Virus record (IMG/VR): IMGVR_UViG_3300010049_000009
Location: 1-64,000 of that record
Length of the DNA stretch: 64,000 nucleotides
Reading direction: 5' to 3' (one strand)
From: a virus
Taxonomy: Duplodnaviria > Heunggongvirae > Uroviricota > Caudoviricetes
The position numbers and the translations under genes are program-made. Of this stretch, positions 1,993 to 61,400 are shown piece after piece (position 1 is the stretch's first letter; the number at the start of each line of letters is the position of its first letter). Under the pieces are notes generated by a model. The model searched no databases. It worked only from the letters and a program-made list of their open reading frames with translations, and had not been told where the DNA came from.

Positions 1993-2568
1993 ATGAAATC
2001 TGAATATAAGTTATCAAAGGATGCGCGAACGCGTCATGTAAATAGTAAGGAACCTGATTTTTTACCTTATTCGACTTTGTGTGTAAAACCAAGTGAATAT
2101 TGGCATAAAACCGTTCAAATGGAGGGGTTTGCTGAACAAATAGAAAATATGTGGAATAGCGAAAATAGTAGTTATACGGAGTTTATCCTAAAATTACCTA
2201 TGCGTTTTCCGTATCGAATGATGCCCACAATAATAAGGGTACATAAAGTTTTCGGTATTGTTAGGGGGGAAGATATTTTTACTAACCGTAAAGTAAATCA
2301 TTTGGAAGTTGAAATTTTGTTTGACTGCGCTGTTACAAGTGTTGTTCGCTTTTCAATTCACATGTACGATTTAAAGGGAAATTTGAATACACGCGAACTC
2401 CTCGAATTGTATATTACAATGGGGTTTGAACAATTTAACAATATATGGGAAGAAACAAATAAACACTTAAACAACGATTATCAAACCGCTCGTAGAGGTG
2501 GTAATGCTATCACAGACGTAAATTACACTAAAGAGGAATTATTGGTGTTACTCAAAGAGTATTTGTAG
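1993..2568 (+). CDS. hypothetical protein (191 aa)
   Basis: ORF. Confidence 0.5.
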   Translation: MKSEYKLSKDARTRHVNSKEPDFLPYSTLCVKPSEYWHKTVQMEGFAEQIENMWNSENSSYTEFILKLPMRFPYRMMPTIIRVHKVFGIVRGEDIFTNRKVNHLEVEILFDCAVTSVVRFSIHMYDLKGNLNTRELLELYITMGFEQFNNIWEETNKHLNNDYQTARRGGNAITDVNYTKEELLVLLKEYL

Positions 2569-2909: not shown

Positions 2910-3341
2910 ATGGTTAAGAGAAGCGTAAAAGAAATATTAGATAATTTATTGGCAGAAACTCGATTTGAGTTTGCTGTGCTTCATTATTCTGACGGCTGCG
3001 GTTATGTGCAGTGTGCAAAATTCGGGGCAGTAAATGTGGTGGCAACAAAAGACGGTAACATTGAAGTTGTCGTTGATAAACCATGCTCCAGGATAGGCGA
3101 CAACGATTTATTAATAAATCAGTTGTTCGCTTTTTTTGCGTTGAAATATCCTGAATACAAAGGTCATGTTGGTATGGGTTTTCACTCACAAAAAGGGGTT
3201 ATAACCCTGAAAGTACCTGAAAAAGCAAAAATAAACAACATAGTTAGAATACTCCGAGAGAGTTTTGACGACAAAATAGATGGTTATTGTTGGAAGACCG
3301 AATATTTGGAGTTGGTGGCAAAAAGAATATTAAACAGTTAG
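2910..3341 (+). CDS. hypothetical protein (143 aa)
   Basis: ORF. Confidence 0.5.
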   Translation: MVKRSVKEILDNLLAETRFEFAVLHYSDGCGYVQCAKFGAVNVVATKDGNIEVVVDKPCSRIGDNDLLINQLFAFFALKYPEYKGHVGMGFHSQKGVITLKVPEKAKINNIVRILRESFDDKIDGYCWKTEYLELVAKRILNS

Positions 3342-5783: not shown

Positions 5784-5836
5784 TCATAATTAACCCAAGG
5801 TGAAAAAAAAATAAATAAGAAGTTTTTTGACAAACT

Positions 5837-8737: not shown

Positions 8738-9118
8738 TTAATATACTATTTCAATGAAATTAAACTTTAATTTAATGATAAAGGCATACTCCTCTCCCGA
8801 TTCTAACATATCGTCATCATCGTGTTCATAAAACCAATTGATTGTTACACCCTTGTTGGTTTCATTAACTTTTTCCAATTTCTTGAAAACATCTAATAAA
8901 CATTTGGAAGTACCTGTATTAAAGTATTCCAATTTTATGTTGACGATTGTTTCCGGTTTTGCTGTTTTAACATAACCGTCTATCCATTCGACCAGGGGTA
9001 TGAAAAAATCAATTGAATTTTCAAGAAGTGACCTTCCTTTAATTTCAAGTAATCCCTGTTCAGCATCAAATACAATAGTCGGGGTTCGTGCCGTTCCTTC
9101 TAATATTAGTGTGTCCAT
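8738..9118 (-). CDS. DUF1987/SiaC-like partner-switching protein (126 aa)
   Basis: LEGTARTPTIVFDAEQGLLEIKGRS...PLVEWIDGYV...IKLEYFNTGTSKCLLDVF...NWFYEHDDDDMLESGEEY recalls the DUF1987 (SiaC) consensus, including a Thr-rich phospho-site region. Confidence 0.4.
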   Translation of the reverse strand: MDTLILEGTARTPTIVFDAEQGLLEIKGRSLLENSIDFFIPLVEWIDGYVKTAKPETIVNIKLEYFNTGTSKCLLDVFKKLEKVNETNKGVTINWFYEHDDDDMLESGEEYAFIIKLKFNFIEIVY

Positions 9119-9168
9119 GTTGTTAAAAATAATTCTGAATTAATTTCTTATAAATAGAATCATTTTAC

Positions 9169-11907: not shown

Positions 11908-12627
11908 ATGAATAATATTCAACAACAATTACTAAAAGAGGTTAAGCGTGGTCAATCAGGTTACGGATTTCTATTTGAGAATGACGGATTTGTTGATCCT
12001 ACTAACCAAAAACATATGTTAAATGAAGACAGAGATAGAAGTGAATGGTATATACCATTTCCTTATATTATCCACGCCGTCTTTCAAAAAGCGGATACCC
12101 CAAACGCCAACGGTAGAATATACCCAAGACCAATATTAGAAAGAGAACTTATAAAATATCAACTAAAAATCAGTGAAAGAAGGGCTTATGGTGAAAGTGA
12201 CCACCCCGAATCAACCATTATATCCACAAAGGGTATTTCAATGAACATTATTAAATTATGGTGGGAAGGAAAAACTATTGTGGGTGATTTGGAAGTACCA
12301 CTATCACATGGATTTGTGAAGAATGGTATTTGTAGCACTCCGGGAGATATTATTGCGAATAATATTTATTATAATAGGTTGAAACTTGGTGTTTCTTCGA
12401 GAGGTGTGGGTTCCGTGGAAGCAGGAAAAAACAATATTAATGTTGTTGGAGACGATTTTGAACTTTTGTGTTGGGATTGGGTGACTGACCCTTCAACACC
12501 GGGTGCTTGGACAGCAAAAGATATGAGTGATTTGAAACCTTATATTGAAAACACAGAAATCAAAACTTGTGAAAAGAAAATATTCATCATTGAAAAAGTT
12601 GATAAAGTATTACAAATTATAAAATAA
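11908..12627 (+). CDS. T4 gp21-like prohead core protease
   Basis: GRIYPRPILERE, YGESDHPE, LWWEGKTIVGDLEV, LGVSSRGVGSV and AWTAKDMS align with recalled T4 gp21 segments (KRLYPKRILEKA, GELNHPP, MWWKGNDVYGRARV, GVSSRGLGSL, AWVTPKE). Confidence 0.6.
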   Translation: MNNIQQQLLKEVKRGQSGYGFLFENDGFVDPTNQKHMLNEDRDRSEWYIPFPYIIHAVFQKADTPNANGRIYPRPILERELIKYQLKISERRAYGESDHPESTIISTKGISMNIIKLWWEGKTIVGDLEVPLSHGFVKNGICSTPGDIIANNIYYNRLKLGVSSRGVGSVEAGKNNINVVGDDFELLCWDWVTDPSTPGAWTAKDMSDLKPYIENTEIKTCEKKIFIIEKVDKVLQIIK

Positions 12628-18240: not shown

Positions 18241-18621
18241 ATGGTACATACAATTATAATCGGTGTTTGGATGACATTGTTATTTATAACATTGTCTGTT
18301 GTTTTCGTATATATGTTTAAGAAACCAAAACATAATATAAACGAGGTTTTTGAACAAATATTTAAGAAACAAGTTGATTTGTTAAAAAAAATTGACGAAG
18401 AAAACACAATGCAAGTAGAGGTGTTTGATAAACTTAACCATAATATTGTAGAGAATTATCGCATACTATTGCAAATACAAATAAAAGAATCTATTAAACA
18501 CAACCCCTTTGAAACAGAACATATTCTAAAATTATATAACGATTACATTGGTATTGCCAAATATCCGAACACAGTTTTAGATGATGCGGTTAATGAGTGG
18601 AGAAACCTATACGGTTATTAA
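18241..18621 (+). CDS. small membrane protein
   Basis: N-terminal TM. Confidence 0.45.
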   Translation: MVHTIIIGVWMTLLFITLSVVFVYMFKKPKHNINEVFEQIFKKQVDLLKKIDEENTMQVEVFDKLNHNIVENYRILLQIQIKESIKHNPFETEHILKLYNDYIGIAKYPNTVLDDAVNEWRNLYGY

Positions 18622-19217
18622 CAAATAAATTCCACCATACCACTATCCAAATAGAGATATGCGCCAACAATTTTTATATCACCATTTTTTTCCTTTTCAC
18701 GTAAAAAACGATATTCCCGAATTGTATTTACAGATTGTTGAACATTTGTTCGACACACCAAATCAAAGAAACCAGGATTAGACGATACGGTTTCACCACC
18801 ATAAATAATATCCGCACTTGCTCGTACCGCCGGTAGTATTGGGCGAAGTTTTCCTAACAAACCCCAATCCTTTTCCTCTGTATCAATAACACGTTTGACA
18901 GCAGCACAATTATCATGTCCCAAAACCATTACCAAATTCACGGAAGGAAAACTACAAGCAAATACCAAATCAAATAAAATTTCATTGGTAATAACATTCC
19001 CCGATGTGCGAATTGTAATAACATCACCCGCACCCAATTTAAAAATATCTTCAACCACAATACGAGAATCTATACAAGTTACTATCACCGCTTTCGGTGT
19101 TTGTTCCTTAATACTATGGGGTTTGTCGTTAACATATTCTTTGTTACGACATTTTAAAACTTCAAGTGTCGGGTGAGGCACTTCTTCTTTCTTTTTGAAT
19201 TTAAAAAAATCTTCCAT
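18618..19217 (-). CDS. beta-class carbonic anhydrase
   Basis: CIDSRIV...GDVITIRTSGNVI...VLGHDNCAAV matches the beta-CA CxDSR / HxxC zinc-ligand signatures. Confidence 0.7.
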   Translation of the reverse strand: MEDFFKFKKKEEVPHPTLEVLKCRNKEYVNDKPHSIKEQTPKAVIVTCIDSRIVVEDIFKLGAGDVITIRTSGNVITNEILFDLVFACSFPSVNLVMVLGHDNCAAVKRVIDTEEKDWGLLGKLRPILPAVRASADIIYGGETVSSNPGFFDLVCRTNVQQSVNTIREYRFLREKEKNGDIKIVGAYLYLDSGMVEFIC

Positions 19218-19224: not shown

Positions 19225-20049
19225 TTATTTAAGGTTTTCAGTTTCGAGTTGTAATATTTCTTTCTCCAACGATGCTGTTATTTTCATAAGTGTTTTTAAA
19301 TAAAACGTGTTTATAATCCACTTGTTTAAGTGTCGCCACCTGCGCTTATCCCAATCAGCCAATGGTGTATAAAACCCCAATAGTGTGGAACGATTATAAG
19401 CAGTAGGTGTATTAAGAAATGATTTACGAAAAGATAAAAAACTCCGCAATTCCCTAAACATAGCATGAAACACGGTGGCGCGACAAATTGTTCCACCACA
19501 ATTTTTATCACGATACAATCCCTTGAATTTTATCCAACGTTTTAAGACTTCACCCATATAATTTGCTTTGTATTTAAACTCTGCAACAATACCCCAATTG
19601 AAGAAAAACCATTTTGGTTCAATCCTAAACAAATGGTCTCTTACACCCATTTTGTATATTTCAACATTCGACTGACGGCGAATAGAATTAAACGGTGCCG
19701 GATTTTGACCAATAGCAAGATTACTCCAATCGCCAAAGAACATTTTGTTTTTACGCTCACCCCAATCACCCATAAAATAATAATCTCCGTAAGTGTCATA
19801 TTGATAATCTGCTGAAGGACAATCTGTCATTGGACAACGATACATGTCTTCTATCGAACCATTCCCATTAGGATCAGTTACATGATCTAACGACGTTTCA
19901 ACCCGTGCCTCACCAACATATTCAAGCCGCACACGAGGTCCACAAAACGCACAACGAAAATCTTCTTTCTGACCATCTATTCTATTATCACATACCCCAT
20001 AGGTTGGGGATTCATTCATACTTTCCATTTTCATATTTATTTTAAACAT
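19225..20049 (-). CDS. hypothetical Cys-rich protein (274 aa)
   Basis: ORF. Confidence 0.5.
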   Translation of the reverse strand: MFKINMKMESMNESPTYGVCDNRIDGQKEDFRCAFCGPRVRLEYVGEARVETSLDHVTDPNGNGSIEDMYRCPMTDCPSADYQYDTYGDYYFMGDWGERKNKMFFGDWSNLAIGQNPAPFNSIRRQSNVEIYKMGVRDHLFRIEPKWFFFNWGIVAEFKYKANYMGEVLKRWIKFKGLYRDKNCGGTICRATVFHAMFRELRSFLSFRKSFLNTPTAYNRSTLLGFYTPLADWDKRRWRHLNKWIINTFYLKTLMKITASLEKEILQLETENLK

Positions 20050-20167: not shown

Positions 20168-20184
20168 TCTATTTATAAAAAATA
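20168..20184 (+). promoter_or_regulatory. conserved upstream motif TCTATTTATAAAAAATA before the histidine kinase gene
   Basis: recurring motif family. Confidence 0.4.
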
Positions 20185-20193: not shown

Positions 20194-20958
20194 ATGAGTA
20201 TTCAAGAAGAAGAAATAAAGAAATTGAAGGAGGAAAATGAGTTGTTGAAAAAGCGTTTGGATAACGCAAACAAACTCAAATCAACCTTTCTTGCTAATAT
20301 GAGCCACGAAATTAGAACACCGTTAAACGCTATTGTGGGGTTTTCTAATTTTTTAACCGAATGTGAAGAATTAACCGAAAGTGAGCGCAACGAATTTATT
20401 AACATTATTCAACAAAATAATGATTACTTATTGAAAATCATTGACGATATTTTAGAACTCTCTAAAATTGAAAGAGATCAAGTCTTTATTAATAATGTTA
20501 AACTGAAACTAAATCAGTTTTTAGGTGGATTGATTAATGAGAATAAGAAAAAAATTAACCCCAATAGGAAAGTCGAATTAATATTAGACGATGTGGATTT
20601 TATTGAAAATTGTCTTATTGAAGTTGATGCCATAAAATTAGAGCAGATACTTAATAATCTTATTGATAATGCTATTAGATTCACATTGAGTGGATATGTG
20701 TTAGTTGGGTATAAACAAATACCGGGTTTCATTGAATTTTATGTTGAAGATAGTGGAGTTGGAATACCCAAAGAAAAATTAGAACACGTTTTTAATAGTT
20801 TTTACCAAATCAATAGTGCTATATGTCCCGATTCGGGAATGGGCGTTGGGTTATTTATTTCAAAAAACTATGTTAAAAGAATGGGTGGTGTTATGGGTGT
20901 AAGTTCAGTCGAAGGTGAAGGTAGTAGATTTCATTTTACCATACCATATCTTGTATAA
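20194..20958 (+). CDS. cytoplasmic sensor histidine kinase (HisKA + HATPase_c), no TM and no sensor domain
   Basis: H-box FLANMSHEIRTPLNAI; N box NNLIDNAIRFT; G1 VEDSGVGIP; F box FNSFYQ; G2 GMGVGLFISK; N-terminal coiled coil. Confidence 0.8.
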   Translation: MSIQEEEIKKLKEENELLKKRLDNANKLKSTFLANMSHEIRTPLNAIVGFSNFLTECEELTESERNEFINIIQQNNDYLLKIIDDILELSKIERDQVFINNVKLKLNQFLGGLINENKKKINPNRKVELILDDVDFIENCLIEVDAIKLEQILNNLIDNAIRFTLSGYVLVGYKQIPGFIEFYVEDSGVGIPKEKLEHVFNSFYQINSAICPDSGMGVGLFISKNYVKRMGGVMGVSSVEGEGSRFHFTIPYLV

Positions 20959-21034: not shown

Positions 21035-21526
21035 ATGAGCGATTTATTGATTAAAATGCCGTTGGTTTACGAACCATTAAGACAAAATAGGTTTCTGTTG
21101 AGGTTTCCTTCTGATCTTGGAATACAAGAATGGTGGGTAAAAGACACTGTTAGACCAACTTTGGAACTACCGTCAAAAGAAATTGAATTTATGAATACCT
21201 CAACTTGGATTACAGGAAGATACAAGTGGAAGGCAATGACTGTTAAGTTAAGAGATACTATTGGTCCTTCTACAAGTCAAGCTGTGATGGAGTGGGTACG
21301 TTTACATGCGGAATCTGTGACCGGCCGTATGGGTTACGCCGCTGGTTACAAACGTAATTGTGAATTGGAAATGTTAGACCCAACCGGTGTTGTTGTTCAA
21401 AAATGGATATTGGTGAATTGTATGTTATCAGGTGATATTAATTTCGGAAGTTTAAGTTATACATCGGAAGAAATTGCTGAAATAGATTTTTCTATACAAC
21501 CCGACTATTGTGTATTAGCATACTAA
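21035..21526 (+). CDS. T4 gp19-like tail tube protein (163 aa)
   Basis: same length as T4 gp19; collinear similarity to recalled gp19 segments (RQNRFLLRFPSDLG / RPNLFQVEISYLG; AVMEWVRLH / QKFVDWQ; IQPDYCVLAY / VTLALDYWE). Confidence 0.5.
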   Translation: MSDLLIKMPLVYEPLRQNRFLLRFPSDLGIQEWWVKDTVRPTLELPSKEIEFMNTSTWITGRYKWKAMTVKLRDTIGPSTSQAVMEWVRLHAESVTGRMGYAAGYKRNCELEMLDPTGVVVQKWILVNCMLSGDINFGSLSYTSEEIAEIDFSIQPDYCVLAY

Positions 21527-21559
21527 TACAACACAATATTTACAGAATACAAGCGAATT

Positions 21560-21590
21560 ATGATGGTATTACCATCATATATTCGTTTTG
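21560..21590. terminator. bidirectional terminator (ATGATGGTA-TT-ACCATCAT + T-rich)
   Basis: perfect 9-bp palindrome between convergent genes. Confidence 0.55.
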
Positions 21591-23029: not shown

Positions 23030-23374
23030 TTAGGATTTTTCTAACATTTCGATTGCAGCACCGATATTGGGTGTGATATTTAATATAGTATCAAGTTGTG
23101 ATATAAAAATCAGGCGTTCCACCGCTTCGTTCAATCCACTGAGGATAAATTTACCACCGGCGTTTTTACACAACCTGTGGGCAACAAGAATTGCACCTAA
23201 GCCGGAAGAGTCACAGTATTTGCACATTTCCAAGTTCAAAATAATGTTCTTCTCACCATTCCCTGATATTAAGACTAATTCGGATTTGAGTGTTGGTGCA
23301 ATATGTGTGTCTAATTTTTGTTGTTGTACACTGATAACGGTGTGTGTAACGTTTTGGTCAATTTTTAAGTTCAT
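23030..23374 (-). CDS. STAS-domain anti-sigma-factor antagonist (SpoIIAA/RsbV-like)
   Basis: DSSGLG phospho-serine motif and overall STAS pattern. Confidence 0.7.
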   Translation of the reverse strand: MNLKIDQNVTHTVISVQQQKLDTHIAPTLKSELVLISGNGEKNIILNLEMCKYCDSSGLGAILVAHRLCKNAGGKFILSGLNEAVERLIFISQLDTILNITPNIGAAIEMLEKS

Positions 23375-23546
23375 TGCAATAAAATTTTTATAATAAATAC
23401 TTATTTCTTTCTATAAATATACATGTTTTTCAAAAATAAACCCCTACAAATTTTATATGTAAGGGTTTAATGGAAAAATATAATGAACTACATTAGGACA
23501 AGAATGTAGGTAAGTCAAATATACTATTTTCGTTTTACATATTAAC

Positions 23547-24029: not shown

Positions 24030-25730
24030 ATGTACAAAAATAATTATGCAACCATAGAAGAGAGTATAGGTAGGATGCAGAAACTTATGGGCAACACCGC
24101 GCCGGTGGTTCGCACGGAACAAGTGCTTGGAAACATTGAAAAGGTGTATAGGGGTCATGATAATAATGCTTATGCTATTGTAAAAGAAAATTCACACTAC
24201 TATTTAAAAGTATCAGGAAAAACATCAGATTTGTCTTTGAACGATTTTGAATATTTGGGTGGAAACAGACAATGTAAAAATCTGTATGAATATAGTTCCT
24301 TTGCCAATGCAGAGAAGTTCCTTAAAGAACATTTAATTACCTTGAACCAACAGGTTAACAACCAAGAATTACTTAAAGAAGAAGCAAAACGTGTTGATAC
24401 CAACCTTGAAAAAACCGCTACTTCAACAGCAATGCGCAGTGAAATAGACCGTATTCGTGAGATTATGGAAAACACCAATAGAATTAATAAAGGTGGTAGT
24501 GCAAGTGTTGTTAAGAAATCTCTAAACGAAAAAGTAAATATCGCTAACGAAGAGAGTGGTATGATTACCGATAGTGTGAACGAAGAACCCGTAAACGAAA
24601 TTATTAGCAATGCTATTAAAAATGTTGCTAGTGGAATTGGTAATATGGGTGCCGGTGTTATTCACGGTCAAACAACAGAAGGAAGCGAAGAACCTGTGAA
24701 TGAATTTGTCAGTAACGCCATAAAAAACGTTGCTAGTGGAATTGGTAATATGGGTGCCGGTGTTATTCACGGTCAAACAACAGAAGGAAGCGAAGACGAC
24801 GAACTTGAACTCGAATTAGACGGTGATGACGAATTTGATTTAGACGACGAATTTGACAGCGAAGAAGAAAATGAATTTGAAGAAGATTTGGAAGACGAAT
24901 TTGACGGTGAAGAAGACGAAGAAATGTCAATGCTAAATGCTTTAATGGATAAGTTGAATAGTATTGAAGAAAAATTAGACGGTGCTGACAGCGAAGAAGG
25001 TGAATTTGAAATAGATTTAGACGACGATAGCGAAGGTGAATTTGATTTAGACGAATGTGGTGTAGTTGGTGAAGGTGACGATATTGAAGAAGCGTTTCTA
25101 TCTGACAAACTCAACGCAAAATATGGTACATTACCAAAACAAGCCGATGAAGCAAAAGCAAATTTTGAAAGAGTTATCACATCTTGGTTGGAAAGAGACC
25201 GACCTGGTATGAGTCCAACAGAATTAGCAAACGCACTTAAAGCAAAAATAGACGAAATAGTTGCCGAAGAAGAATCAGACGATATTGATAACCCACTGTT
25301 TGATGACCCCGATGACAGAATGACGGGTACTATGGGTGAAGCCAATATGAAAAGAATGGTTCAAAAAATTATTAAAGAAACTATTAGTACAATCGCTTCT
25401 GATGTAACAAAAGATAATTTTGGATATACTAACGCCGAACCGGATAGTAAAGGTAGAACGAGTTTTGATAACCCAAAAGCCGAAAAAGAAATTGGTTTAG
25501 GTAATCACCACGAAGATACACTTGATCAAATTAAATCAACAACAGGAAATCATTCTAAACCTTCAACAGGTAGTACACCAGCAGGTAAAGTTGCTAACGT
25601 TATTGACGATATAGAAGTTGAAATCGTTGATTGTTGTGAGTCAAAAAACAAAAAACCTCTCTACATTGTAGAACAAGACGGAACAGTTATTGGTAAAATT
25701 GCACGTGAAACGTTGAAGAAGCGTAAATAA
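24030..25730 (+). CDS. acidic protein (566 aa) with a 35-aa tandem duplication, possible scaffold or internal virion protein
   Basis: EPVNE(II/FV)SNAIKNVASGIGNMGAGVIHGQTTEGSE x2, then a D/E-rich block. Confidence 0.55.
   Translation: MYKNNYATIEESIGRMQKLMGNTAPVVRTEQVLGNIEKVYRGHDNNAYAIVKENSHYYLKVSGKTSDLSLNDFEYLGGNRQCKNLYEYSSFANAEKFLKEHLITLNQQVNNQELLKEEAKRVDTNLEKTATSTAMRSEIDRIREIMENTNRINKGGSASVVKKSLNEKVNIANEESGMITDSVNEEPVNEIISNAIKNVASGIGNMGAGVIHGQTTEGSEEPVNEFVSNAIKNVASGIGNMGAGVIHGQTTEGSEDDELELELDGDDEFDLDDEFDSEEENEFEEDLEDEFDGEEDEEMSMLNALMDKLNSIEEKLDGADSEEGEFEIDLDDDSEGEFDLDECGVVGEGDDIEEAFLSDKLNAKYGTLPKQADEAKANFERVITSWLERDRPGMSPTELANALKAKIDEIVAEEESDDIDNPLFDDPDDRMTGTMGEANMKRMVQKIIKETISTIASDVTKDNFGYTNAEPDSKGRTSFDNPKAEKEIGLGNHHEDTLDQIKSTTGNHSKPSTGSTPAGKVANVIDDIEVEIVDCCESKNKKPLYIVEQDGTVIGKIARETLKKRK
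24582..24791 (+). repeat. 2 x 105-bp in-frame tandem duplication inside the CDS
   Basis: near-identical DNA copies starting at 24582 and 24687. Confidence 0.8.
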
Positions 25731-26525: not shown

Positions 26526-28442
26526 TTAATTAACTTCTTCCGCTTCCTGTGGTCCACCGGCGGTTGCTTTACTGAAATCAAAATCACCAAATGGGTTGTC
26601 CGCACCCATATTAGCAAACGGATTGCTTGGGTTTCCACCACCAGGGTTATTTGCCGCATACAATCTTGTTGAAATCGGTATCCACACCTCATCCATTTTC
26701 TTTGCTAACTCATCCACCTTTTCGTGGTTTTCGGTTTTAATAACTTCCTTCAATTCGTCAATCACCGTTTGGATTTTTATTTTTTCCTCATCGGTAATTT
26801 TATCACCCATTTCGTCAATTTGTTTTTCGGTTGAGAAAATTATGGAGTCCGCCTTATTCATAGCTAAAACCTTTTCCATTTTTTTCTTATCCGCTTCGGC
26901 GTTATCTTCTGCTTCACGTTTCATTCTTTCAACCTCTTCTGACGATAATCCTGATGAAGATTGAATGGTGATATGTTGTTCTTTGTTTGTCCCTTTATCA
27001 GTTGCTTTAACAGACATAATACCGTTGGCATCAATACTAAATGTTACCTCTATTTGTGGTGTACCGCGCCTTGCCGGTGGAATACCATCTAAATCAAATT
27101 GACCTAATAGTTTATTATCATTGAAAGAGGGGCGTTCACCTTGGGCTACGCGAATGGTTACTGCCGGTTGGTTATCAACTGCTGTGCTGAAAATTTGTGA
27201 TTTTGAAACAGGGATTGTTGTGTTCGCATCAATAAGTTTTGTGAACACACTACCCATAGTTTCGATACCTAATGAAAGTGGTGTGACATCTAAAAGTAGA
27301 ACGTCTTGTGTTTCACCACTTAACACAGACCCTTGAACTGCTGCTCCAAGGGCAACAACTTGGTCGGGATGTACACTTTTGTTTGGTTTTCTCCCAAAAA
27401 ACTTCTCAACAGCCTCTTGTACAGCGGGAATACGAGTACTACCACCAACAAGAATTACTTCGTCAATATCACTTGTGGTTATACCTGCGCTTTTCAATGC
27501 TGATTTACAAGGTTCGATTGTGCGTTTAACGATAGTTTCTATCATTTGTTCAAATTTCGCACGTGTAATCGTTTGCACGAGGTGTTTTGGTACACCGTCA
27601 ACCGGCATAATGTATGGAAGATTTATTTCTGTTTGAACTGAACTTGACAACTCAATTTTCGCCTTCTCAGCGGCTTCTTTCAGGCGTTGTAATGCCATTG
27701 GGTCTTTTTTCAAATCAATGGCGTATTCCTTATTAAATTCGTCAGCAAGATAATTTATAATGACATGGTCAATATCATCACCCCCCAACCTTGTATCGCC
27801 GTCAGTGGATTTGACTTCAAACACACCACCACCGAGTTCAAGTATTGATATATCGAATGTACCCCCACCGAAGTCAAATACAGCAATTTTCATATCGTCT
27901 TTCTTATCTAAACCAAAAGCCAATGCTGCTGCCGTAGGTTCATTAATTATACGAGCGACTTCTAATCCGGCTATTTCACCCGCTTCTTTGGTTGCTTGAC
28001 GCTGTGAATCGGAAAAATAAGCCGGTACAGTGATAACTGCTTTAACCACCTCTGTTCCAAGAAAATCTTCCGCTGTTTTCCGCATTTTTTGCAGGATTAT
28101 TGCTGAAATTTCTTGTGGGGAATATTCTTTATTTTCAATTTTAACACGAATAGTGTCATTAGTACCACTTACAAGTTCGTATGCAACTTTATCCTTTTCG
28201 TTGTTGATTGAACTATATTTTTCACCCATAAAACGCTTTATGGAATAAACCGTTTTTGTTGGATTAGTTACCGATTGGCGTTTCGCGGAATCTCCCACAA
28301 CACGCTCACCGTCTTTTATAAAACCAACAATTGAGGGGGTGGTGTCCTTCCCCTCACCGTTTGGAATAACCATTGGCTTACCACCTTCTACTACTGAAAC
28401 ACAAGAGTTACTTGTGCCTAAATCTATACCTATTATTTTCAT
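26526..28442 (-). CDS. dnaK: Hsp70 chaperone DnaK
   Basis: [19 protein letters not shown]..., DLGGGTFD, full-length 638 aa with an acidic C-terminus. Confidence 0.9.
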
Positions 28443-28459
28443 ATTAAATATTTATTTTT

Positions 28460-28927
28460 TCAATTTATATCAATTTTTCTAATTGTGGGTTGTTCGGTAG
28501 AACTCCACATTTTATCTATAACAATCTCCAAAATACCATCCACAATATGTGAAGTAGTAGTATCTAAATCACAATCTTTTGGAATGGTAAATGTTTCTTT
28601 ACCGGGTTTTGTGTTGAAATGAAAACCATTATCACGTGGTTTATACTCCACAGTTAGAGTATAATCTTGTAATGTGATTTCAATATCATTTTTTGATAAT
28701 CCTGGAACCAACAATTCAATCGAATGAGTGTGTGCATCACTCTCGATATGACAGTTTGATCTACCTATACCGTATGATACAGTATAACTTGGTGGCGCAA
28801 TTATGTCTTGCGCACGTGGGAGAATACCCCACCATGGGCTTGTATCCTCACTTGGTAAAAAATCACCCACATGAAATCTATATGGATAATTACCTGTACC
28901 TGTTCTTATGTTACAACAACTTTTCAT
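28460..28927 (-). CDS. small heat-shock protein (Hsp20/alpha-crystallin-like)
   Basis: alpha-crystallin-like core IELLVPGLSKNDIEITLQDYTLTVEYKPRD...FTIPKDCDLD...DGILEIVIDK. Confidence 0.5.
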   Translation of the reverse strand: MKSCCNIRTGTGNYPYRFHVGDFLPSEDTSPWWGILPRAQDIIAPPSYTVSYGIGRSNCHIESDAHTHSIELLVPGLSKNDIEITLQDYTLTVEYKPRDNGFHFNTKPGKETFTIPKDCDLDTTTSHIVDGILEIVIDKMWSSTEQPTIRKIDIN

Positions 28928-28993
28928 ATTATATAATTATTATTATTATTTATTTTTACATTTACCACTATTCAAAGAGTGTGCCAAAGGATT

Positions 28994-29044
28994 TTTGTCA
29001 CAAAAAAAGATGTTTTTTGTGACAAAATATGACAGATTGTCATA
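28994..29044. promoter_or_regulatory. two adjacent palindromes, TTTGTCACAAAAAA-N5-TTTTTTGTGACAAA (14-bp arms) and TATGACA-GAT-TGTCATA, upstream of the sHsp-DnaK operon and overlapping the infA stop
   Basis: perfect inverted repeats sharing a TGTCA half-site. Confidence 0.45.
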
Positions 29045-29291
29045 CTTGTCCTTCATCTACTGACACCTTTGCAGTATTGAACCGGCGTGAAATACGACCT
29101 CTTGTCAGATCGTATGGCGACATTTCTATTTCGACTTTATCACCAACTAAAATTTTAACGTAGTTTTTGCGTATTTTACCTGATATTACACACAGCACCA
29201 TGTGTTCGTTTTCCAACTCAACGCGAAAGGTGGCGTTACCCAACGCTTCTGTAACTATACCTGTTTGGATTATAAGATTCTTTTTACCCAT
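29040..29291 (-). CDS. infA: translation initiation factor IF-1 homologue
   Basis: [57 protein letters not shown] is roughly 60% identical to the recalled E. coli IF-1 ([57 protein letters not shown]). Confidence 0.85.
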
Positions 29292-34933: not shown

Positions 34934-34986
34934 ATCATTTTTTCTATAAATATACAGTATTTTAAAATAACATTGAATTATATGTG

Positions 34987-35067
34987 AGCGGATAGTGGGA
35001 CTCGAACCCACACGCCTTTCGGCACTAGTTCCTAAGACTAGCGCGTATACCATTCCGCCATATCCGC
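34987..35067 (-). tRNA. tRNA-Leu (anticodon TAG), type II with long variable arm
   Basis: acceptor GCGGATA/TATCCGC; anticodon stem CTAGT/ACTAG, loop CTTAGGA; folded by eye. Confidence 0.7.
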
Positions 35068-35133
35068 ATATTATCACAAATATTTGCACTGTTATCATAG
35101 GTATTGATAATAGTGCAATTTTATTTGATAATG

Positions 35134-35206
35134 TATGAGTGGAGGGATTCGAACCCCCGATTTCGTGGTCCCAAACCACGCGCCATACCAACTTGACCAC
35201 ACCCAT
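35134..35206 (-). tRNA. tRNA-Pro (anticodon TGG), with an A1-U72 pair
   Basis: anticodon stem CGTGG/CCACG, loop TTTGGGA; T-arm GGGGG-TTCGAAT-CCCTC. Confidence 0.65.
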
Positions 35207-35213
35207 GTTGTTG

Positions 35214-35285
35214 ATGTTCCACCAGGACTTGAACCTGGACAAACAGATTCAAAATCTGTTGTGCTAACCATTACACAATGGAACA
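35214..35285 (-). tRNA. tRNA-Gln (anticodon TTG)
   Basis: acceptor TGTTCCA/TGGAACA (U1-A72 typical of Gln); anticodon stem ACAGA/TCTGT, loop TTTTGAA. Confidence 0.7.
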
Positions 35286-35291
35286 ATGTAG

Positions 35292-35364
35292 CTGGGATAG
35301 TAGGTCACGATCCTACGACCTGCGGATTAACAGTCCGATGCTCTACCAACTGAGCTATATCCCA
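35292..35364 (-). tRNA. tRNA-Asn (anticodon GTT)
   Basis: acceptor TGGGATA/TATCCCA; D-arm GCTC-AGTTGGTA-GAGC; anticodon loop CTGTTAA. Confidence 0.7.
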
Positions 35365-35370
35365 ATTTTG

Positions 35371-35443: not shown

Positions 35444-35448
35444 TTTTG

Positions 35449-36101: not shown

Positions 36102-38081
36102 TTAATTAACCAAAATTTTTTCACTATTTTCTAAATATTCATCAATTCGTACTATTAAACGTTCAAATTCTTCATTTATTACAGGAGAACCTGTTAAAGT
36201 TGGTTTATTTTGTACTACAATATTTTCTGTGATAATTTTTTCTTTGTTATGTTTTTTATTTTCCATTGGTGCTGCTTCTGCTGCCCCAGCCTCTGCGCCA
36301 CCCACATCGGGTGCACCACCTTCGGCAGGTGCTTCGCCACCACCTTCTTCTGCGCCGCCGCCCATATCATCCATACCCATATCGCCACCTGGTGCACCTC
36401 CACCGCCGCCACCGGCAGCCGCTTCTGCTTGTCCTATTTCAGTAGCACCATAATTATATTCTGCATTTGCTTCACCATATAATGTATCAACTCTATCAAA
36501 AAGACCTGTTTTCTTAATAATTTGTTGTGTTAATACTAATTCGGTTGCCAATGCTTTTTCAAGTCGAAGGTCTTCCAATATCTGATTAATTTCGCTTTCA
36601 GGGAATTTCATAATTTCCCTTAACGCTTTTCTCCACGAATATACTGCTAATCCACCACCCGGATCTGAAAGAGCATCTTTACAAACAAGAATCTTCTTCT
36701 GCATTTCTTCAATACGTTGAATTTCTGCTTGTGTTGAAGGATTGTTCATTGTTATTGTAAAGTTATTCAGTTCGTCTGTAAAACCTAACAAATAAAGATG
36801 TATGATAGCAATTTTATTTAGTTCAAGAATAACACATTGTTGAATACGTGTAATTATTTTGGCAAATCTTACGTCAGTCATTGATAGTGTTCTACCTTCG
36901 GCTGGTGATGCTTCAAAATTTAAAAATACCTTTGGAATACCCAAGGCGGTGAGCATTTGCAAATGAAGATATTCTAAAATATCTTTAAATTTTTCAAATG
37001 CTGAACTACCACTTAACGCCTCGATTTTACTTGCGTCATTGTTACCTCTAACCGGGATAAAATAATCGTCTAAGGGTGACATTACGTTTTTAGATAAGTC
37101 AATATGACCTGTTTGTGGGTCAATTCGGGAAGTTCTTTTAAATCTGTTTGCTATTTCTTGTACGTATGGTTCAATGTCAGCATCGTCAATTAATCCAACG
37201 TCTATTTTGTATATTAATCTATCGTATGCTCTCTCCATCATATGTATTAACATATGATCTTCCGCCATCATTAATCTTCGCCATTGTTGTCTTGCACCAT
37301 TAATATATGAACAACCATAGGGGGCGGCAATCATATCATTCATTAGTCTGAAATGTCCCACTTGCCAACTATGAAATGTTTGTGGTGCACCTGCGCCAAT
37401 ATATTGAAAATGTGGTTGAAGTTGTGATACGTCATTGTTGGATACACTACCAGCGTTTTGTGGCATAACACCGTAGGGGTGTAAACTTTGAAATCTTCTC
37501 ATTTCGACCACAGGTACGGAGTGCCACGCCAATATACCGTTTTTAGATTGAATGTTTAACAGTTTATATTCGTTACCATATTTTACCATAGTACGGACTA
37601 GGGGTAATAGTTCCAAATGTATTTGAAGTCTATTAACGAAAAGGTCTTCTAAAATAAACTTAATTCTATCTGATTTTGAGGTGATATTAATTAGTGAACC
37701 GTCAGGTCCTAAAGTACATGTTTCTGATGCTACCAAATTTAAAGCCTGATATATTTCAGGTCTTTGGCACATATTTTCAATATCACGATACATTAAGTCA
37801 ACATAACCCATTGACTGTAAATCACGCATATTAGTACGTGCTTGGGTATGTATCCACGTTGAACTTAACCATTTGTCTTGTTTACCTTGAAGTAGTGCCG
37901 CATCATATTCCGCTTTATTCTTTGTTTTAAGAATAATATCGTTATTGTAATCATAGGTGCTCGGGTGAGATGACTGAACAGTGGTGTTGTACTGCCCTTT
38001 ATCCCACCCTGTTAAAGTTTTTATCAGTGCGCTATATATACTTATAGGTTTTTCTTGTTTCTTATCCATTATCGAATACAT
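36102..38081 (-). CDS. candidate portal (T4 gp20-like) or other large head protein, with a Gly/acidic C-terminal tail
   Basis: 659 aa, no NTP-binding motif, located beside putative head/scaffold genes; the family could not be verified by eye. Confidence 0.3.
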   Translation of the reverse strand: MYSIMDKKQEKPISIYSALIKTLTGWDKGQYNTTVQSSHPSTYDYNNDIILKTKNKAEYDAALLQGKQDKWLSSTWIHTQARTNMRDLQSMGYVDLMYRDIENMCQRPEIYQALNLVASETCTLGPDGSLINITSKSDRIKFILEDLFVNRLQIHLELLPLVRTMVKYGNEYKLLNIQSKNGILAWHSVPVVEMRRFQSLHPYGVMPQNAGSVSNNDVSQLQPHFQYIGAGAPQTFHSWQVGHFRLMNDMIAAPYGCSYINGARQQWRRLMMAEDHMLIHMMERAYDRLIYKIDVGLIDDADIEPYVQEIANRFKRTSRIDPQTGHIDLSKNVMSPLDDYFIPVRGNNDASKIEALSGSSAFEKFKDILEYLHLQMLTALGIPKVFLNFEASPAEGRTLSMTDVRFAKIITRIQQCVILELNKIAIIHLYLLGFTDELNNFTITMNNPSTQAEIQRIEEMQKKILVCKDALSDPGGGLAVYSWRKALREIMKFPESEINQILEDLRLEKALATELVLTQQIIKKTGLFDRVDTLYGEANAEYNYGATEIGQAEAAAGGGGGGAPGGDMGMDDMGGGAEEGGGEAPAEGGAPDVGGAEAGAAEAAPMENKKHNKEKIITENIVVQNKPTLTGSPVINEEFERLIVRIDEYLENSEKILVN

Positions 38082-55901: not shown

Positions 55902-58412
55902 TTAAGGAACAGTATTTTCTCTCACATCATTAAAACTCGCTGCTACACTGATATTTCCTCTTTCACAACGTCTTATGAAAACGGTGGGGGTGTTGTTTAC
56001 TCCTAAATGATTATCTATTACTATTTCACACCTAAATCCTGTGCCATCACTAGATAATTCAATTTCGTCATTGGGAGTGAATCCACCAATGGTGTTGCCA
56101 TTGATACTTGTTATACTCTCTATTCTACCTCTACCAACCCAATCACATGTATCTTCTTCACTACCCTCATATATGGTTATAACCGTTGTACCATCATATC
56201 CAAGACCACCGTTAGTTACCGTTATTTCATATTCGTATGTGAAAACATCATCATCAACTTCTGTTATAATAGCAACTGCGGTTGCGGTAGCCCCAATTCC
56301 TGTACCTACTATACGTACTTGTGGATTTTCTATTTGTAAATCCCCTTCGTATGTTATACTCTCTATTCTACCAATAACTTCTAAATTAAACCCAACTTGA
56401 TCCCCATTTGAATTTGTTATTGTTCCTGTGGTATTCAATTCGTAGTTGTTGCCACCCACATATAGTTTAATATTTGTTACTCTTCCGGGACCAGGTATAT
56501 AAAATATTTCCTCTTCTTGTAATATGTTTTGTTCTTGATACACAGTATCCACATATCCTAACCTCAATAATCCGTTGGTAATCGTTGTTTCAGGTAGAAT
56601 GTTACCCGATATTGTCCAAGTCGCTACGTCTGTAATATCTTGGTTTGTGTAATTTATTTCAGCAAATTCGGTTGTATCGTCAATTCTTAATCGCGCAAAA
56701 AATTGAATGGTTTCTCCATAACAACTTGGACCACCAAGACATTGTGGTTTATTTTTTTCGTAACAATGTGGTATTAAATCACAACGAACATTGTTTGCTG
56801 TGTCATATCCTGCTCTATCTGTGGTTATGGTAATATATTTTCTGTAAATATCAAGTTCAATTGGTAGAAGTGGTGGTTCAAACGGATCGGGGTCTCTATA
56901 ACTCACATTAAGTGTTATATAATCCGCACGTTCATTGTTTCCAACACGTAAAATACTTGTTCCAATATTAAAATTCGTGTTTGGATCGGTAGTGGTTGAA
57001 GCAATAGTTACTACCAAATCTTGTCTAATTCCACCACCAAATACCCAAGTATTTATTCTTATATCTTTACCGGCGGTATAACCTCTTTCAAGTGGTGTTT
57101 CGGGATCAGACCAATCTGTCATTATTTGTGGGACAAACCACACAACCGCAGAACCCGCTACCGCACCATCACTAATCATTTTTCCCACAACACTTCCACT
57201 TAAATCTCTTACTGTTTTATGTGGTCTAAACACACCAATATCAGCAAGTGTCACACCATTTACAGGTAGTTGGGGTGTTGGTATCATTAATCCAAAATGT
57301 GATTCCCATATTATTTCTTGGGTTGGGTTATCACCACCAAAAATGTACGCATTGAAAGATTTTGAGTTTGGTTTTAAATATAAACTTGGTGCTAATATAG
57401 CATCTCTTTTTTCTATTTCAGGTTCGGGTTCACCGGTTTCTTCTTCTTCTTCTTCTTCTTCTTCGGTTTCCCCCTCTTCGTCAGGTTCAGGTTCGTCAGG
57501 TCCTGGGTCCGTAATAGTGATAGTAGGGGGTGTTCTATATCCATTCCCACTATCAACAATTATAATTTCTATAATTCTACCTTCTTCGTCAATCACGGCA
57601 CTAACAATGGCAGTTCTATTGGTTTCTAATGGTTCGTCATTTTCATCTACGGCGTCCGGTTCACTAATTGTTATTAACATATTTTCCGAATACCCACTAC
57701 CACCATCAATTATTACTATTGATTTAAGACTTTTTTCATTTGATTCATAGTAACTCATTCTTTCTAATGAAGGTATAACATCAACACGTAGTGGGGTTGC
57801 TATACAGAGGGGTAAATCTTCCAATCTTTTACCTGCGCCCAACTGTCCTTCTTCACCATTACCATCCCCCACTATTTTTACATAATTTTCACCCATTATA
57901 TAATCATCTTCGTATGGTACTGCCCCACCAATATTTGGATATGGTGGAAGTTTGGGGTTATTGGGGTTTGTGGGTGGTGGAATTACTTCATATTTTTCAT
58001 TGGTATATTGTAATTTAACCGTATTTGCTTGTTTTAATATAGAACCACCACATACACCCCTTAATACAGCACCATTACCACTACCGCCAGTTACGGTTAT
58101 TGTTATGGGGTTGGTATTAGTTCCGCTACCAGGGTTTGTTACTATAACATCTACTATTCGACCATCTTCAATTTTTAAAGTTGCTGTTGCACCGACTACC
58201 CCACCACTAATATTTACGCTTGGCGGAATCAGTTCATTATATCCACTACCCGGATTAACTATTTCAACCCTTTCTAAAAACCTATTAGTACACACACCAC
58301 CAAAACATAATGTTGTGTCTGTATCATAAAATTGAACCGCTGTACCACACTTGTTCTCCGCCTTTACGAAAGCAATGCTATATTTACTAGTTTCTCTTAA
58401 TGCCGCATCCAT
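55902..58412 (-). CDS. large structural protein (836 aa) with repeated V-x-V-x-N-P-G-S-G-Y modules and a poly-Glu tract
   Basis: EIVNPGSGY, VIIDGGSGY, IIVDSGNGY; (TTC)n at 57439-57461. Confidence 0.65.
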   Translation of the reverse strand: MDAALRETSKYSIAFVKAENKCGTAVQFYDTDTTLCFGGVCTNRFLERVEIVNPGSGYNELIPPSVNISGGVVGATATLKIEDGRIVDVIVTNPGSGTNTNPITITVTGGSGNGAVLRGVCGGSILKQANTVKLQYTNEKYEVIPPPTNPNNPKLPPYPNIGGAVPYEDDYIMGENYVKIVGDGNGEEGQLGAGKRLEDLPLCIATPLRVDVIPSLERMSYYESNEKSLKSIVIIDGGSGYSENMLITISEPDAVDENDEPLETNRTAIVSAVIDEEGRIIEIIIVDSGNGYRTPPTITITDPGPDEPEPDEEGETEEEEEEEEETGEPEPEIEKRDAILAPSLYLKPNSKSFNAYIFGGDNPTQEIIWESHFGLMIPTPQLPVNGVTLADIGVFRPHKTVRDLSGSVVGKMISDGAVAGSAVVWFVPQIMTDWSDPETPLERGYTAGKDIRINTWVFGGGIRQDLVVTIASTTTDPNTNFNIGTSILRVGNNERADYITLNVSYRDPDPFEPPLLPIELDIYRKYITITTDRAGYDTANNVRCDLIPHCYEKNKPQCLGGPSCYGETIQFFARLRIDDTTEFAEINYTNQDITDVATWTISGNILPETTITNGLLRLGYVDTVYQEQNILQEEEIFYIPGPGRVTNIKLYVGGNNYELNTTGTITNSNGDQVGFNLEVIGRIESITYEGDLQIENPQVRIVGTGIGATATAVAIITEVDDDVFTYEYEITVTNGGLGYDGTTVITIYEGSEEDTCDWVGRGRIESITSINGNTIGGFTPNDEIELSSDGTGFRCEIVIDNHLGVNNTPTVFIRRCERGNISVAASFNDVRENTVP

Positions 58413-58476
58413 CTATTCTTCATTTATTTTATATAATATAAATAATAGAGATATTTTTCGTATATTTAAGTGTTAG

Positions 58477-58492
58477 ACTATTTATAAGAAAA
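58477..58492 (+). promoter_or_regulatory. conserved motif GACTATTTATAAGAAAA, 7 nt before the ATG of the giant ORF; a TATAAATA also at 58437-58444
   Basis: recurring motif family. Confidence 0.4.
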
Positions 58493-58498
58493 TTCATA

Positions 58499-61400
58499 AT
58501 GATAGATTTTGATTGGAATAAAGATTTCACTAATATTATAGAAACCACCGTAAAAGACCTTCTTAAAAAAGCGGAAAAAGAAACCAATGCCGACCCAACA
58601 CCGGAACAAGCAAAGGCGGGTAATTACAAGAAGGGAAGGGTAACTATTCAAGGGTTGGAAATTGCAATAGAAAATCCGAAGGGTAGTTATCGTAAGGGTG
58701 TAGACGCAAATGGTAAGGAATGGAAAAACAAAATGAATAACACATACGGTTATTTTGTTCAAACCAAAGCAATAGACGGTGACGCTGTTGATGTTTTTAT
58801 TGGTAGTTCCATAATGTCGGATAAAGTTTTTTGTATTGACCAATATAATGGAAATGAATTTGACGAAACCAAAGTAATGTTGGGATTCACAACAGCAGAA
58901 TACGCAAAAAAAGCATATCTATCAAATTACGAACCCGGTTGGAAAGGTTGTAAATATATAACGGAATTGGATATTGATACATTCAAAATGTGGTTAAATA
59001 ACCGCAAAGAAAAAAAACAAAGAAAACCTGTTCATTTTTATAAATCACTGATAAAAGAAGAAAACTTACTCAAAGAAAGTCTTGGTGTACGTGATGGGTT
59101 AACACCCATTGCGAAGGAAATTACTAACCGAATATTGGAAAATTGGAAAATGGGTATAACTGTTATATCAGGTATGAAAATTGAAGATGTTATGAGGACT
59201 CCCTATGAAGAACTTGAAATATTTTTACCTTATAAGGGTGAAATAGAAATAAGGGATGTTGGATTTATTGGAAAAATGTCTGTTGGTTTTAAACTTGTGG
59301 GTAAGGGTGATCGTTTAACTAATTCGTTTGTGGATGATGACCCCGATTTGGGTATTATAAAATCAACGATTGAAAATAATAAAATGATTATGCCACCCAC
59401 TAGAACTAAACCAAGTACTAAACCAAAAGCACCCCCTAAAATCACACGAAATATGTTTATATCTTCGTTTCAAGATAAAAATGAATTAATGACATTGGTT
59501 CTACATGAATTAAAACATGTGTGGGATTATTATATTTACATTAAAAAGAACACCAATTTTAATTTAGAAAAAACCAAAGTTTATCAAGTACAAGATAAAA
59601 TTGCAACATATATAATAGATAAGGTTAGGCAAATTGAAAAAGAATATCCCCATAAAAAAATATCCGATGAAGAATTAATTGAATGGTATGAGGATGAAGA
59701 AAACGTCTTTACCATACCTATTGATAAAGAAGAAGAAGATATTTTGGATAATAAAATAAGAAACGATTTGTTTGTTGTGGGTTCTAAACCACTAAAATTT
59801 GTTCCAAAAGATGATACTGTTCAAAAACTATTTTATTACACAGGAGAAACAAAAGAACTTGAAGCATTTACACAAGAGTCGTGGGAACAAATGTTATCCA
59901 ATGGAGGAAAATATAGAGAAACAAGTCTATGGGAAAAATATATGTGGTTGGTTGAAAAGGATAAAGAATTAAACCCTCTAAAAGGAGAAGAGTATATAAA
60001 CAAAATAAATTTTTATCATAGGTTTTACCCATCAAGTTGGTCAAGAGATAAAGTAGAAAAGGATATCAGGTGGCGTTTAAAAAAAGGTATCCGGGATTAT
60101 GTTTATAATATCGGTAGATTACGTGCAAGGTATGATAACCCCCCCGAAACACCGGAGACACCGGAACCCCCTATTACCGAAAATAAACAAATTATTAGTT
60201 CGGTAATAAGTCCGTATCACGGTGTAATAGGTAGTGCCGCACCCGGTAGCGAAGAATATGAAATAGGAGTGGAAATATCAGAGGGATTGAATATTAATAA
60301 CATTGTTAAGGATATTCTGTTTGAAGGTAAAGAGAGTAAAAATTTATCCAAAGCTCGAAACTATTTAAAAAACATACATAGTTTAACACAAGAAAAAGCA
60401 CAACTTGTTTTAGATAACATAAGACACCTCATTCACAATTCACGAATTGAGAATTGTAAATATATGACAGGTCTTGCAAGAATGGCAATTACTAATCAAT
60501 TGAGTGATCAAATTACACAAAGTAATATGAACAAAACATTGAAACTTTTAGAGGGTCACACTGATTACAATGAAGATTTGAATGGTTTGTCGGCAACAGA
60601 ATTAATTAATCGTTTTCAAACCGCCGTTCAAGAAGATTTGGAAAAAGATAAAGAAACCCAAAAACAATATAGTAACACTAACACCGATGGTAATTACAAT
60701 GGATATAAAATAGTTCCCATAAACGATTTTGATGACGCAAAACAATATAGTTTTGGCGTTAATTGGTGTATAACAGAAAGTGAAAGTTCTTTTGAAACAT
60801 ATACTAAAAATGGGTTAGCACGTTTTTATTTTCTTTTGAAAAATAGATATGAATTTATGAGTTATGAACTTCATGATAAAGAAGGAAGTGACCCATTAGA
60901 CGAATACGGATTAAGTAAGATTGCTATTAGTGTTAATGAAGATGGTTCATTAAATAGTTCCACATTAAGACGAAATCACAATTTTGGTGCTAATGATAAT
61001 ATGTTAACTACCGGACAGATAAGTAAACTAATCAACGCAAACTTCTACGAAGTGTTCAAACCCTATTCAAAAGAAGAATTAATTGAAAGAAAAGAAAAAT
61101 TGAAATTTTTTAGACCCGATAATCTGAATGAGTTAATTAGAAGGGATAAAATGGAGTTGGATGATTTGGAACAAGTAGGGGAAAGAATAGTTAGTAGAAT
61201 TATTTACAAAAATCGTTGTAATTATATAACACCTGACGAAGCGGGAGAAATTGTTGATAATAACGGAAAACGTTATTCTGTTGTATTTTCTAAATATGAA
61301 AGTGGTTTTACAGGATGGATGCCCTTTAACAAAGTAAATAAATGTTTAATATTGGTGATTGATAAAACCTACAACATAGGTAGGGTAGATGGTACAATGA

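Follow-up and report, generated by a model that had tools for sequence, protein, structure and literature searches.

Introduction

Histidine kinases borne by phages are already known. The Clostridioides difficile phage phiCDHM1 carries an AgrC homologue without AgrA, which has been proposed to act on host signalling (PMC3901668), and in HTVC023P-type pelagiphages histidine kinases lie within a curli-secretion cluster (PMC9599517). A hybrid kinase of 757 amino acids (aa) with a fused receiver is encoded by the unannotated 735-kb genome of the uncultured phage LR756501 (LR756501.1 32174-42782, open reading frame (ORF) 3834-6104), and hybrid kinases like it are found on IMG/VR contigs L103, L113, L134, L150, L154, L160, and L166 (276-676 kb). 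In a broad survey of jumbo phages, histidine kinases are not named among the features of phages (PMC7824862). Here, we analyze a histidine kinase gene (20194..20958) found in a 64,000-nucleotide stretch of a tailed phage genome (positions 1 to 64,000 of IMG/VR record IMGVR_UViG_3300010049_000009; hereafter, the window), which is part of a T4-core-like jumbo phage of ~368 kb. The pelagiphage and huge-phage kinases are like this one in that they too are examples of kinase genes found repeatedly among phage genomes; the novelty in the window is a bare kinase core placed under a motif that also precedes virion genes.

The AgrC homologue of phiCDHM1 and the kinase described here are both phage-borne histidine kinases without a response regulator. 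In other respects the two differ: AgrC is a membrane-embedded peptide receptor of another kinase subfamily, carried by a temperate phage together with agrB and agrD, whereas the jumbo phage protein is soluble, sensor-less, and of the HisKA type, and its gene follows a motif of the structural-gene type. Among bacterial proteins, the cytoplasmic portion of HK853 from Thermotoga maritima (HK853cp; 2C2A, 3DGE, 6RH0) has the same architecture, a dimerization and histidine phosphotransfer (DHp) domain followed by a catalytic and ATP-binding (CA) domain, and nearly the same length. The HK853cp construct was obtained in the laboratory by truncating a membrane sensor whose partner, RR468, is known, while the phage kinase is a natural stand-alone core. 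The RetS-GacS pair of Pseudomonas aeruginosa offers a model of a kinase core that acts on another kinase through DHp contacts; RetS, however, is a large membrane hybrid sensor, whereas the phage kinase is a small soluble core. We consider it about as likely as not that the phage protein is a signal-independent dimer, made together with virion proteins, that drives or drains phosphorylation of a host receiver domain, and consider the alternatives alongside the evidence that bears on them.

Results

The kinase gene (20194..20958, plus strand), as defined by the ORF list, Pfam, alignment, and a structural model, codes for 254 aa. An in-frame stop lies five codons 5' of the ATG with no other start in between, so the N-terminus cannot be extended. 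The gene located 5' of the kinase (19225..20049) sits on the opposite strand, which rules out a split sensor gene. Residues 29-93 (20278..20472) form the HisKA/DHp domain (PF00512, E 2.1e-19), and residues 145-252 (20626..20949) the HATPase_c, or CA, domain with the N, G1, F, and G2 boxes (PF02518, E 6.1e-24). The two domains score 69.7 and 85 bits, respectively, against Pfam gathering thresholds of 26.9 and 26.4, so the profile check proposed in the initial annotation of this stretch, which had described a soluble orphan histidine kinase, came out in favor of that assignment. The ATP lid spans approximately residues 205-215, and the protein ends two residues past HATPase_c.

All the signature boxes listed in that annotation are present, and their key residues are invariant in a family alignment of 34 sequences (the phage kinase and 33 homologues). 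In the H box (SHEIRTPLN, residues 37-45), S37-H38-E39-I40-R41-T42-P43 are invariant columns; the codon of the phospho-acceptor, His38, occupies positions 20305-20307. Invariant residues in the remaining boxes are N155 and N159 in the N box (NLIDNAIRFT, 155-164), D186, G188, and G190 in G1 (DSGVGIP, 186-192), F200 and F203 in F (FNSFYQ, 200-205), and G215, G217, and G219 in G2 (GMGVGLFIS, 215-223). An E-x-x-T motif, which gives HisKA kinases phosphatase activity, is intact.

The claim that the protein has neither a transmembrane segment nor a sensor was likewise borne out. The highest Kyte-Doolittle mean over 19 residues of the protein is 1.07, i.e., no transmembrane segment was found, and no sensor (input) domain was detected, HisKA being preceded by 28 residues only. 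These residues (20194..20277, plus strand) make up a helical stub, half of whose residues are charged, which is continuous with DHp helix 1 and, judging from the model, alignment, and composition, is a signalling-helix remnant. In the alignment, bacterial relatives extend N-terminally into PAS regions at the point where the phage kinase begins; the stub thus stands where relatives have a PAS or other sensor region. NCBIfam models of the hybrid kinases TorS, BarA, and ArcB matched the core only and far below their equivalog cut-offs (191.9 bits against 676.5 for the best match, TorS), so the protein does not belong with these hybrid kinases. Together, the profile searches and alignment show a predicted class I HisKA kinase core with a complete set of catalytic residues and with no membrane anchor, sensor, or receiver domain. 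They also show that the predicted protein has all the parts for ATP binding, histidine autophosphorylation, and phosphatase activity, and nothing to sense a signal with.

An AlphaFold2 model of a single chain, built on the 34-sequence alignment, had a mean pLDDT of 86.3 and a pTM of 0.78. A helix comprising residues 2-56 runs uninterrupted from the stub into DHp helix 1 and forms a hairpin with a second helix (62-93), which is followed by the alpha/beta-sandwich CA domain. The pLDDT falls below 50 solely at residues 207-211, as expected of an ATP lid. The best Foldseek matches of the model were structures of the HK853 cytoplasmic portion (E 1e-22, TM score 0.76-0.82, ~30% identity); the WalK/YycG and CusS cores and the kinase region of RetS were also matched. 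As modelled, the phage kinase is a complete soluble DHp and CA core whose sole addition is the 28-residue helical stub.

To place the kinase among its relatives, we used a homologue search that covered 5.8 billion clusters. Besides the self-match, the best matches were bacterial (39-47% identity), and the named ones came from Bacteroides or Bacteroidales. A scan of species-representative genomes with phage-specific peptide words returned 21 loci, including Labilibacter and metagenome-assembled genomes of Marinilabiliaceae/Bacteroidales with proteins 38-43% identical to the kinase; such a scan shows the nearest taxa, and neither donor nor host is identifiable from it. Overall, the phage kinase is closest (38-47% identity) to PAS-kinases and hybrid kinase-receiver proteins of Bacteroidales. 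Representative Bacteroidales kinases (P0005, P0013, P0108, and, from B. thetaiotaomicron, P0078) belong to the same HisKA subfamily and are 42-47% identical to the phage protein over the whole core. The ATP-binding boxes are all common to the phage kinase and the Bacteroidales PAS-kinases and hybrids, and both are without a separate adjacent regulator. The bacterial proteins are, however, 333-1127 aa long and have transmembrane, PAS, or GAF regions for input, and in many cases a receiver is fused to them; the phage kinase has none of these. One protein with an outstanding score (P0002) was considered as a phage orthologue and rejected, being a bacterial kinase, located in a GroES/GroEL context, that was duplicated in the assembly. 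Most "phage" matches to the kinase obtained with tblastn were host contamination or unannotated fragments.

DHp helix 1 of the phage kinase (MSHEIRTPLNAIVGF) is nearly identical to that of the Bacteroidales family, and the same is true of much of helix 2. This similarity, together with the presence of the RetS kinase region among the structural matches, would fit a protein that pairs with related host kinases through the DHp hairpin and, as a heterodimer, blocks their signalling or diverts it in the manner of RetS and GacS; with no sensor and no receiver, the dimerization surface is the main interaction module the protein has. A pure titrator would have no need of an intact ATP-binding site, whereas in the phage protein His38 and all four ATP-binding boxes have been conserved over a long divergence. 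We regard action by heterodimer formation as distinctly improbable.

The kinase gene has a GC content of 0.304 (0.264 at third codon positions), in line with the rest of the phage, and its relative synonymous codon usage correlates with that of the window at 0.74, compared with a mean of 0.76 for other ORFs of the window and 0.06-0.52 for bacterial homologues. The match in codon usage and GC argues for long residence in the phage rather than recent capture.

Related phages were collected from IMG/VR by means of the tail tube protein (80 loci; the closest are 55-68% identical and lie on contigs of 232-380 kb). Neither the kinase nor its neighbours were found within 8 kb of the tail tube gene at any of these 80 loci; gene order is therefore uninformative as to conservation of the kinase. 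Since related jumbo phages have no kinase near the tail tube gene, the kinase region appears to be lineage-specific and dispensable for the phage family. A separate pattern scan of IMG/VR revealed 173 stretches that encode relatives of the kinase subfamily, several of them on contigs of 276-676 kb. Architecture was judged in 80 of the 173: nearly all had an N-terminal extension of at least 100 aa, a fused receiver, or both, and a bare core was seen in none of those that were complete in their locus.

In principle, the gene could be what is left of a host gene fragment that was once captured and no longer has a function. Compared with every bacterial relative it is cut short, related jumbo phages do not have it in the vicinity of their tail tube gene, and, with a single sequence variant available, selection is not measurable. 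Nevertheless, the reading frame is intact, no catalytic residue has been lost over a divergence of more than 50%, codon usage has fully adapted to the phage, and the gene has a promoter-like motif of its own. Moreover, the truncation falls exactly at a domain boundary and leaves a confidently folded core. Decay of this kind strikes us as very improbable.

The next question is whether the phage encodes a partner for the kinase. According to Pfam, no Response_reg, Hpt (histidine phosphotransfer), PP2C, or second GHKL domain is present in the 86 non-overlapping ORFs of at least 60 aa in the window. A receiver (REC) hidden Markov model was purpose-built from eleven receiver domains and run unfiltered on all six frames of the window. 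The best E value was 0.82, i.e., no receiver domain was detected, while positive controls, the fused receivers of hybrid homologues, scored 1e-36 to 1e-46. A receiver was also not found in 10 kb of additional left flank and a short right extension (L169, L172). The search thus covers ~75 kb of the ~368 kb genome, and it is for this neighbourhood of the gene that the kinase counts as an orphan.

The statement of the initial annotation that the window encodes no response regulator stands on both searches. Its further argument, from the orphan status of the kinase, fared less well. The absence of a receiver extends over the ~75 kb. In the donor family, 14 bacterial loci had either a receiver fused to the kinase or no receiver, and a separate neighbouring receiver gene was seen at none. 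The missing adjacent regulator is thus inherited from the donor family, whose bacterial members are likewise without one; it is a trait of the whole family rather than a peculiarity of the phage, and the argument from it has less force than would first appear. The phage protein, judging from its predicted domain content, stands apart in having lost all its sensor and receiver domains.

A receiver, or an Hpt protein and a receiver, might be encoded elsewhere in the remaining ~290 kb and form with the kinase a phage-internal two-component pathway that regulates phage genes. Only ~75 kb of the 367,985-bp genome were examined, and receivers are common in viral contigs, being fused to the kinase at most of the 80 IMG/VR kinase loci and in LR756501. 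However, there is no receiver within 20 kb to the left or 43 kb to the right of the kinase, while cognate kinase-regulator pairs are normally adjacent. In addition, no separate regulator gene adjoins the kinase in the donor family, and a sensor-less kinase offers such a circuit nothing to sense. An internal pathway is, in our estimate, unlikely, though worth keeping in mind.

A promoter-like motif, the 8-mer TATTTATA, is located 16 nt before the start codon of the kinase (20170..20177, plus strand). The window contains 26 copies of this 8-mer, compared with 13.9 expected. In the sense orientation and 11-37 nt upstream of a start, it is found at 13 of the 86 ORFs, compared with 0.7 expected (binomial P = 4e-14); the conserved upstream motif noticed earlier as common to the kinase and structural genes is therefore real. 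The genes that it precedes include those of the T4-type portal (36102..38081), the prohead protease (Peptidase_S77; 11908..12627), a virion structural protein (55902..58412), the kinase, a SiaC-family protein, and a STAS protein. Start-associated copies include those at 7558, 11883, 17729, 20170, 23549, 33132, and 38180 on the plus strand and at 9149, 23412, 38093, 48550, 55880, and 58437 on the minus strand. The motif often has C or T just before it and an A/T-rich stretch just after, and it is like the T4 late promoter TATAAATA in style and unlike it in sequence. Two other copies, at 22092 and 58479, probably belong to a 49-aa ORF and to a giant ORF that leaves the window.

Downstream of the kinase lies the gene of the tail tube protein (21035..21526, plus strand; phrog_4542, E 7.7e-21), which starts 76 nt past the kinase stop codon. 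The tail tube gene has no exact TATTTATA of its own, and no terminator-like site was found in the 76-nt gap; a terminator-like 9-pair hairpin (TATGATGGTATTACCATCATA) followed by a T-rich tail (TATTCGTTTT) comes after the tail tube gene (21559..21579, plus strand). From these three features we infer co-transcription: the kinase and tail tube genes probably form one putative transcription unit that is expressed with the structural genes.

A second upstream motif, GGATCGGA(A/T)TA(A/T)T followed ~15 nt on by ATTATATT, occurs at 1936, 2854, and 20079 (and at 14949). It precedes ORFs 1993..2568 and 2910..3341, as well as the divergent neighbour of the kinase (19225..20049, minus strand), and may mark a different temporal promoter class.

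Two further genes under TATTTATA, both missed in the initial annotation, code for predicted phospho-signalling proteins. The first (8738..9118, minus strand; motif at 9149-9156) encodes a partner-switch phosphoprotein of the SiaC family (formerly DUF1987; PF09345, E 4.5e-40), ~62% identical to Bacteroidales proteins. Alignment to P. aeruginosa SiaC (6KKO) shows that the Asn-Thr phospho-site region, including the Thr, is kept. In Bacteroidales, the genes of SiaC homologues are immediately preceded by a GHKL-like DUF6272 gene, whose product contains a GGGGLGL box. No gene for a DUF6272 or SiaB-like kinase was found in the window, and a 151-aa ORF upstream of the SiaC-family gene, considered as a divergent SiaB/DUF6272 kinase, was rejected, as it shows no similarity. 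The second gene (23030..23374, minus strand; motif at 23412-23419) encodes a STAS, or anti-sigma-antagonist-like, protein (PF01740, E 2.6e-15) that is 67-74% identical to Bacteroidales STAS proteins and, when aligned to SpoIIAA, retains the phospho-Ser of the DSSGLG motif. In the bacterial contigs examined, the STAS gene lies between genes for an S1-domain protein and a metallo-beta-lactamase-fold protein, with a SiaC-family gene at a distance of 2.6 kb. Neither an anti-sigma kinase nor a PP2C phosphatase or sigma factor to go with the STAS protein was detected in the window. PADLOC defence models gave no family at E <= 0.001 for the kinase, the SiaC-family and STAS proteins, or two neighbouring ORFs.

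Since the kinase is the sole GHKL ATPase detected in the window, the phospho-acceptor Ser and Thr are kept in the STAS and SiaC-family proteins, and TATTTATA is common to all three genes, the kinase might phosphorylate one or both proteins on Ser/Thr and so constitute a phage partner-switch module. Known kinases of STAS and SiaC proteins (SpoIIAB, RsbW, SiaB/DUF6272) are, however, single GHKL domains without HisKA or an H box, whereas the phage kinase has a HisKA domain with a canonical H box and the invariant His38, and thus is not of the SpoIIAB/RsbW/SiaB type. The Bacteroidales homologues of SiaC pair with DUF6272 rather than with HisKA kinases, and the phage kinase has no similarity to the DUF6272 proteins that accompany SiaC. 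The three genes, finally, are 2-11 kb apart and on different strands. A module of this kind can be given hardly any credence.

By homology, then, the phage is predicted to have within the window three single halves of host phospho-signalling pairs (the kinase, the SiaC-like protein, and the STAS protein), all under the same motif. These partnerless halves might constitute a coordinated kit of one virion-gene promoter class that, late in infection, jointly rewires both the two-component and the partner-switch signalling of the host, or that is packaged in the particle and delivered into the next cell to act ahead of any phage gene expression. We hold this to be a speculative and rather unlikely extension.

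That the kinase is encoded by a phage, as first annotated, is confirmed by the T4-type portal, prohead protease, tail tube, and tRNA array of the window, and by the presence of an identical kinase protein on contigs of up to 367,985 bp. The window matches contigs from several independent samples at 99.98-100%, and the kinase sequence is identical in contigs from several samples. The long contigs and the near-identical contigs from several samples indicate a genuine jumbo phage genome and not a chimera. A megablast search of the region against GenBank phages returned zero matches; the closest cultured relatives, as judged by the portal protein (~33% identical), are a Microcystis phage and a Flavobacterium phage. 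A Bacteroidales-type bacterium is a candidate host.

The window has a GC content of 33% and ten tRNA genes: an array of nine (Leu, Pro, Gln, Asn, Asp, His, Glu, Tyr, and Thr; 34986-35818, minus strand) and a separate tRNA-Trp (5632-5706, plus strand). The divergent neighbour of the kinase (19225..20049, minus strand) codes for 274 aa with a Cys-rich N-terminal region (CDN...CAFCGP...CPMTDCP) and had no match in Pfam, PHROGs, or PADLOC. A beta-class carbonic anhydrase (18618..19217, minus strand; Pro_CA, E 5e-28), an unusual auxiliary gene for a phage, is located two genes upstream of the kinase. A cluster on the minus strand (26526..29291) comprises genes for an Hsp70/DnaK-like protein (638 aa, E 3e-245), Hsp20, and an IF-1/eIF-1a-like protein, and a Band_7 protein is also encoded in the window. 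The giant ORF (~58440..64000, plus strand) is open for at least 1853 aa and runs off the right end; its full product has 1991 aa (L172 602-6577), with Pfam matches to InPase and, faintly, WG_beta_rep. Secondary BLAST alignments revealed a tandem duplication of ~105-115 bp with 89.6% identity at 24578-24796, within an ORF of 566 aa with no assigned function (24030..25730, plus strand). A perfect palindrome, TACTCAAATGAGTA, which is the only 14-mer repeated in the window (3 copies), is found at gene ends in a region of small ORFs (763-776, 3986-3999, and 4855-4868) and could be a terminator or an operator.

Discussion

Action on a host response regulator, as proposed when the gene was first annotated, would be a reasonable role for the phage kinase. 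The course of events we favor is as follows. A phage ancestor would have captured the core of a host kinase and shed all input domains, leaving a homodimer whose activity is independent of any signal. The gene would be transcribed with the structural genes, probably on one transcript with the tail tube gene. The protein would autophosphorylate on His38 and pass the phosphate to a host receiver domain or, alternatively, use its E-x-x-T phosphatase motif to strip phosphate from such a receiver. The likeliest targets would be receivers attached to related host hybrid kinases, or else an orphan host response regulator; the former appear the most plausible because DHp helix 1 is almost exactly shared with those kinases. 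As an outcome, one host two-component output would be locked on or off during infection. The kinase may act alongside the partnerless SiaC-like and STAS proteins, which would likewise intercept host partner-switch signalling.

Several points weigh against phosphorylation or dephosphorylation of a host receiver. Identity to any bacterial kinase is 38-47%, and specificity may have drifted as a result; the kinases of the donor family, for their part, are without known partners. Near-invariant family residues are altered in the phage protein, although at three positions only (K162R, R202S, and T216M), and each of these changes has precedents among active kinases. A receiver or Hpt protein of the phage's own may exist in the ~290 kb that lie beyond the region searched. 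The designation of TATTTATA as a "late" motif is an inference from the genes found downstream of its copies. Lastly, the kinase and its neighbours are missing from the vicinity of the tail tube gene in the 80 related loci.

It is known that phages use receptors, peptides, and sigma factors to tap host communication. A phage kinase that directly takes over two-component phosphorelays has been proposed in the case of the AgrC homologue of phiCDHM1, but to our knowledge such a takeover has never been demonstrated biochemically. Small, soluble, and sensor-free, the phage kinase is a counterpart in nature to the truncated constructs with which kinase biochemists work, and as such it is an unusually tractable case for testing which host pathway a jumbo phage of the gut or sediment type has to control. 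That orphan genes for a SiaC-like and a STAS protein occur under the same motif suggests a wider strategy, whereby the phage would take along one half each of host signalling pairs.

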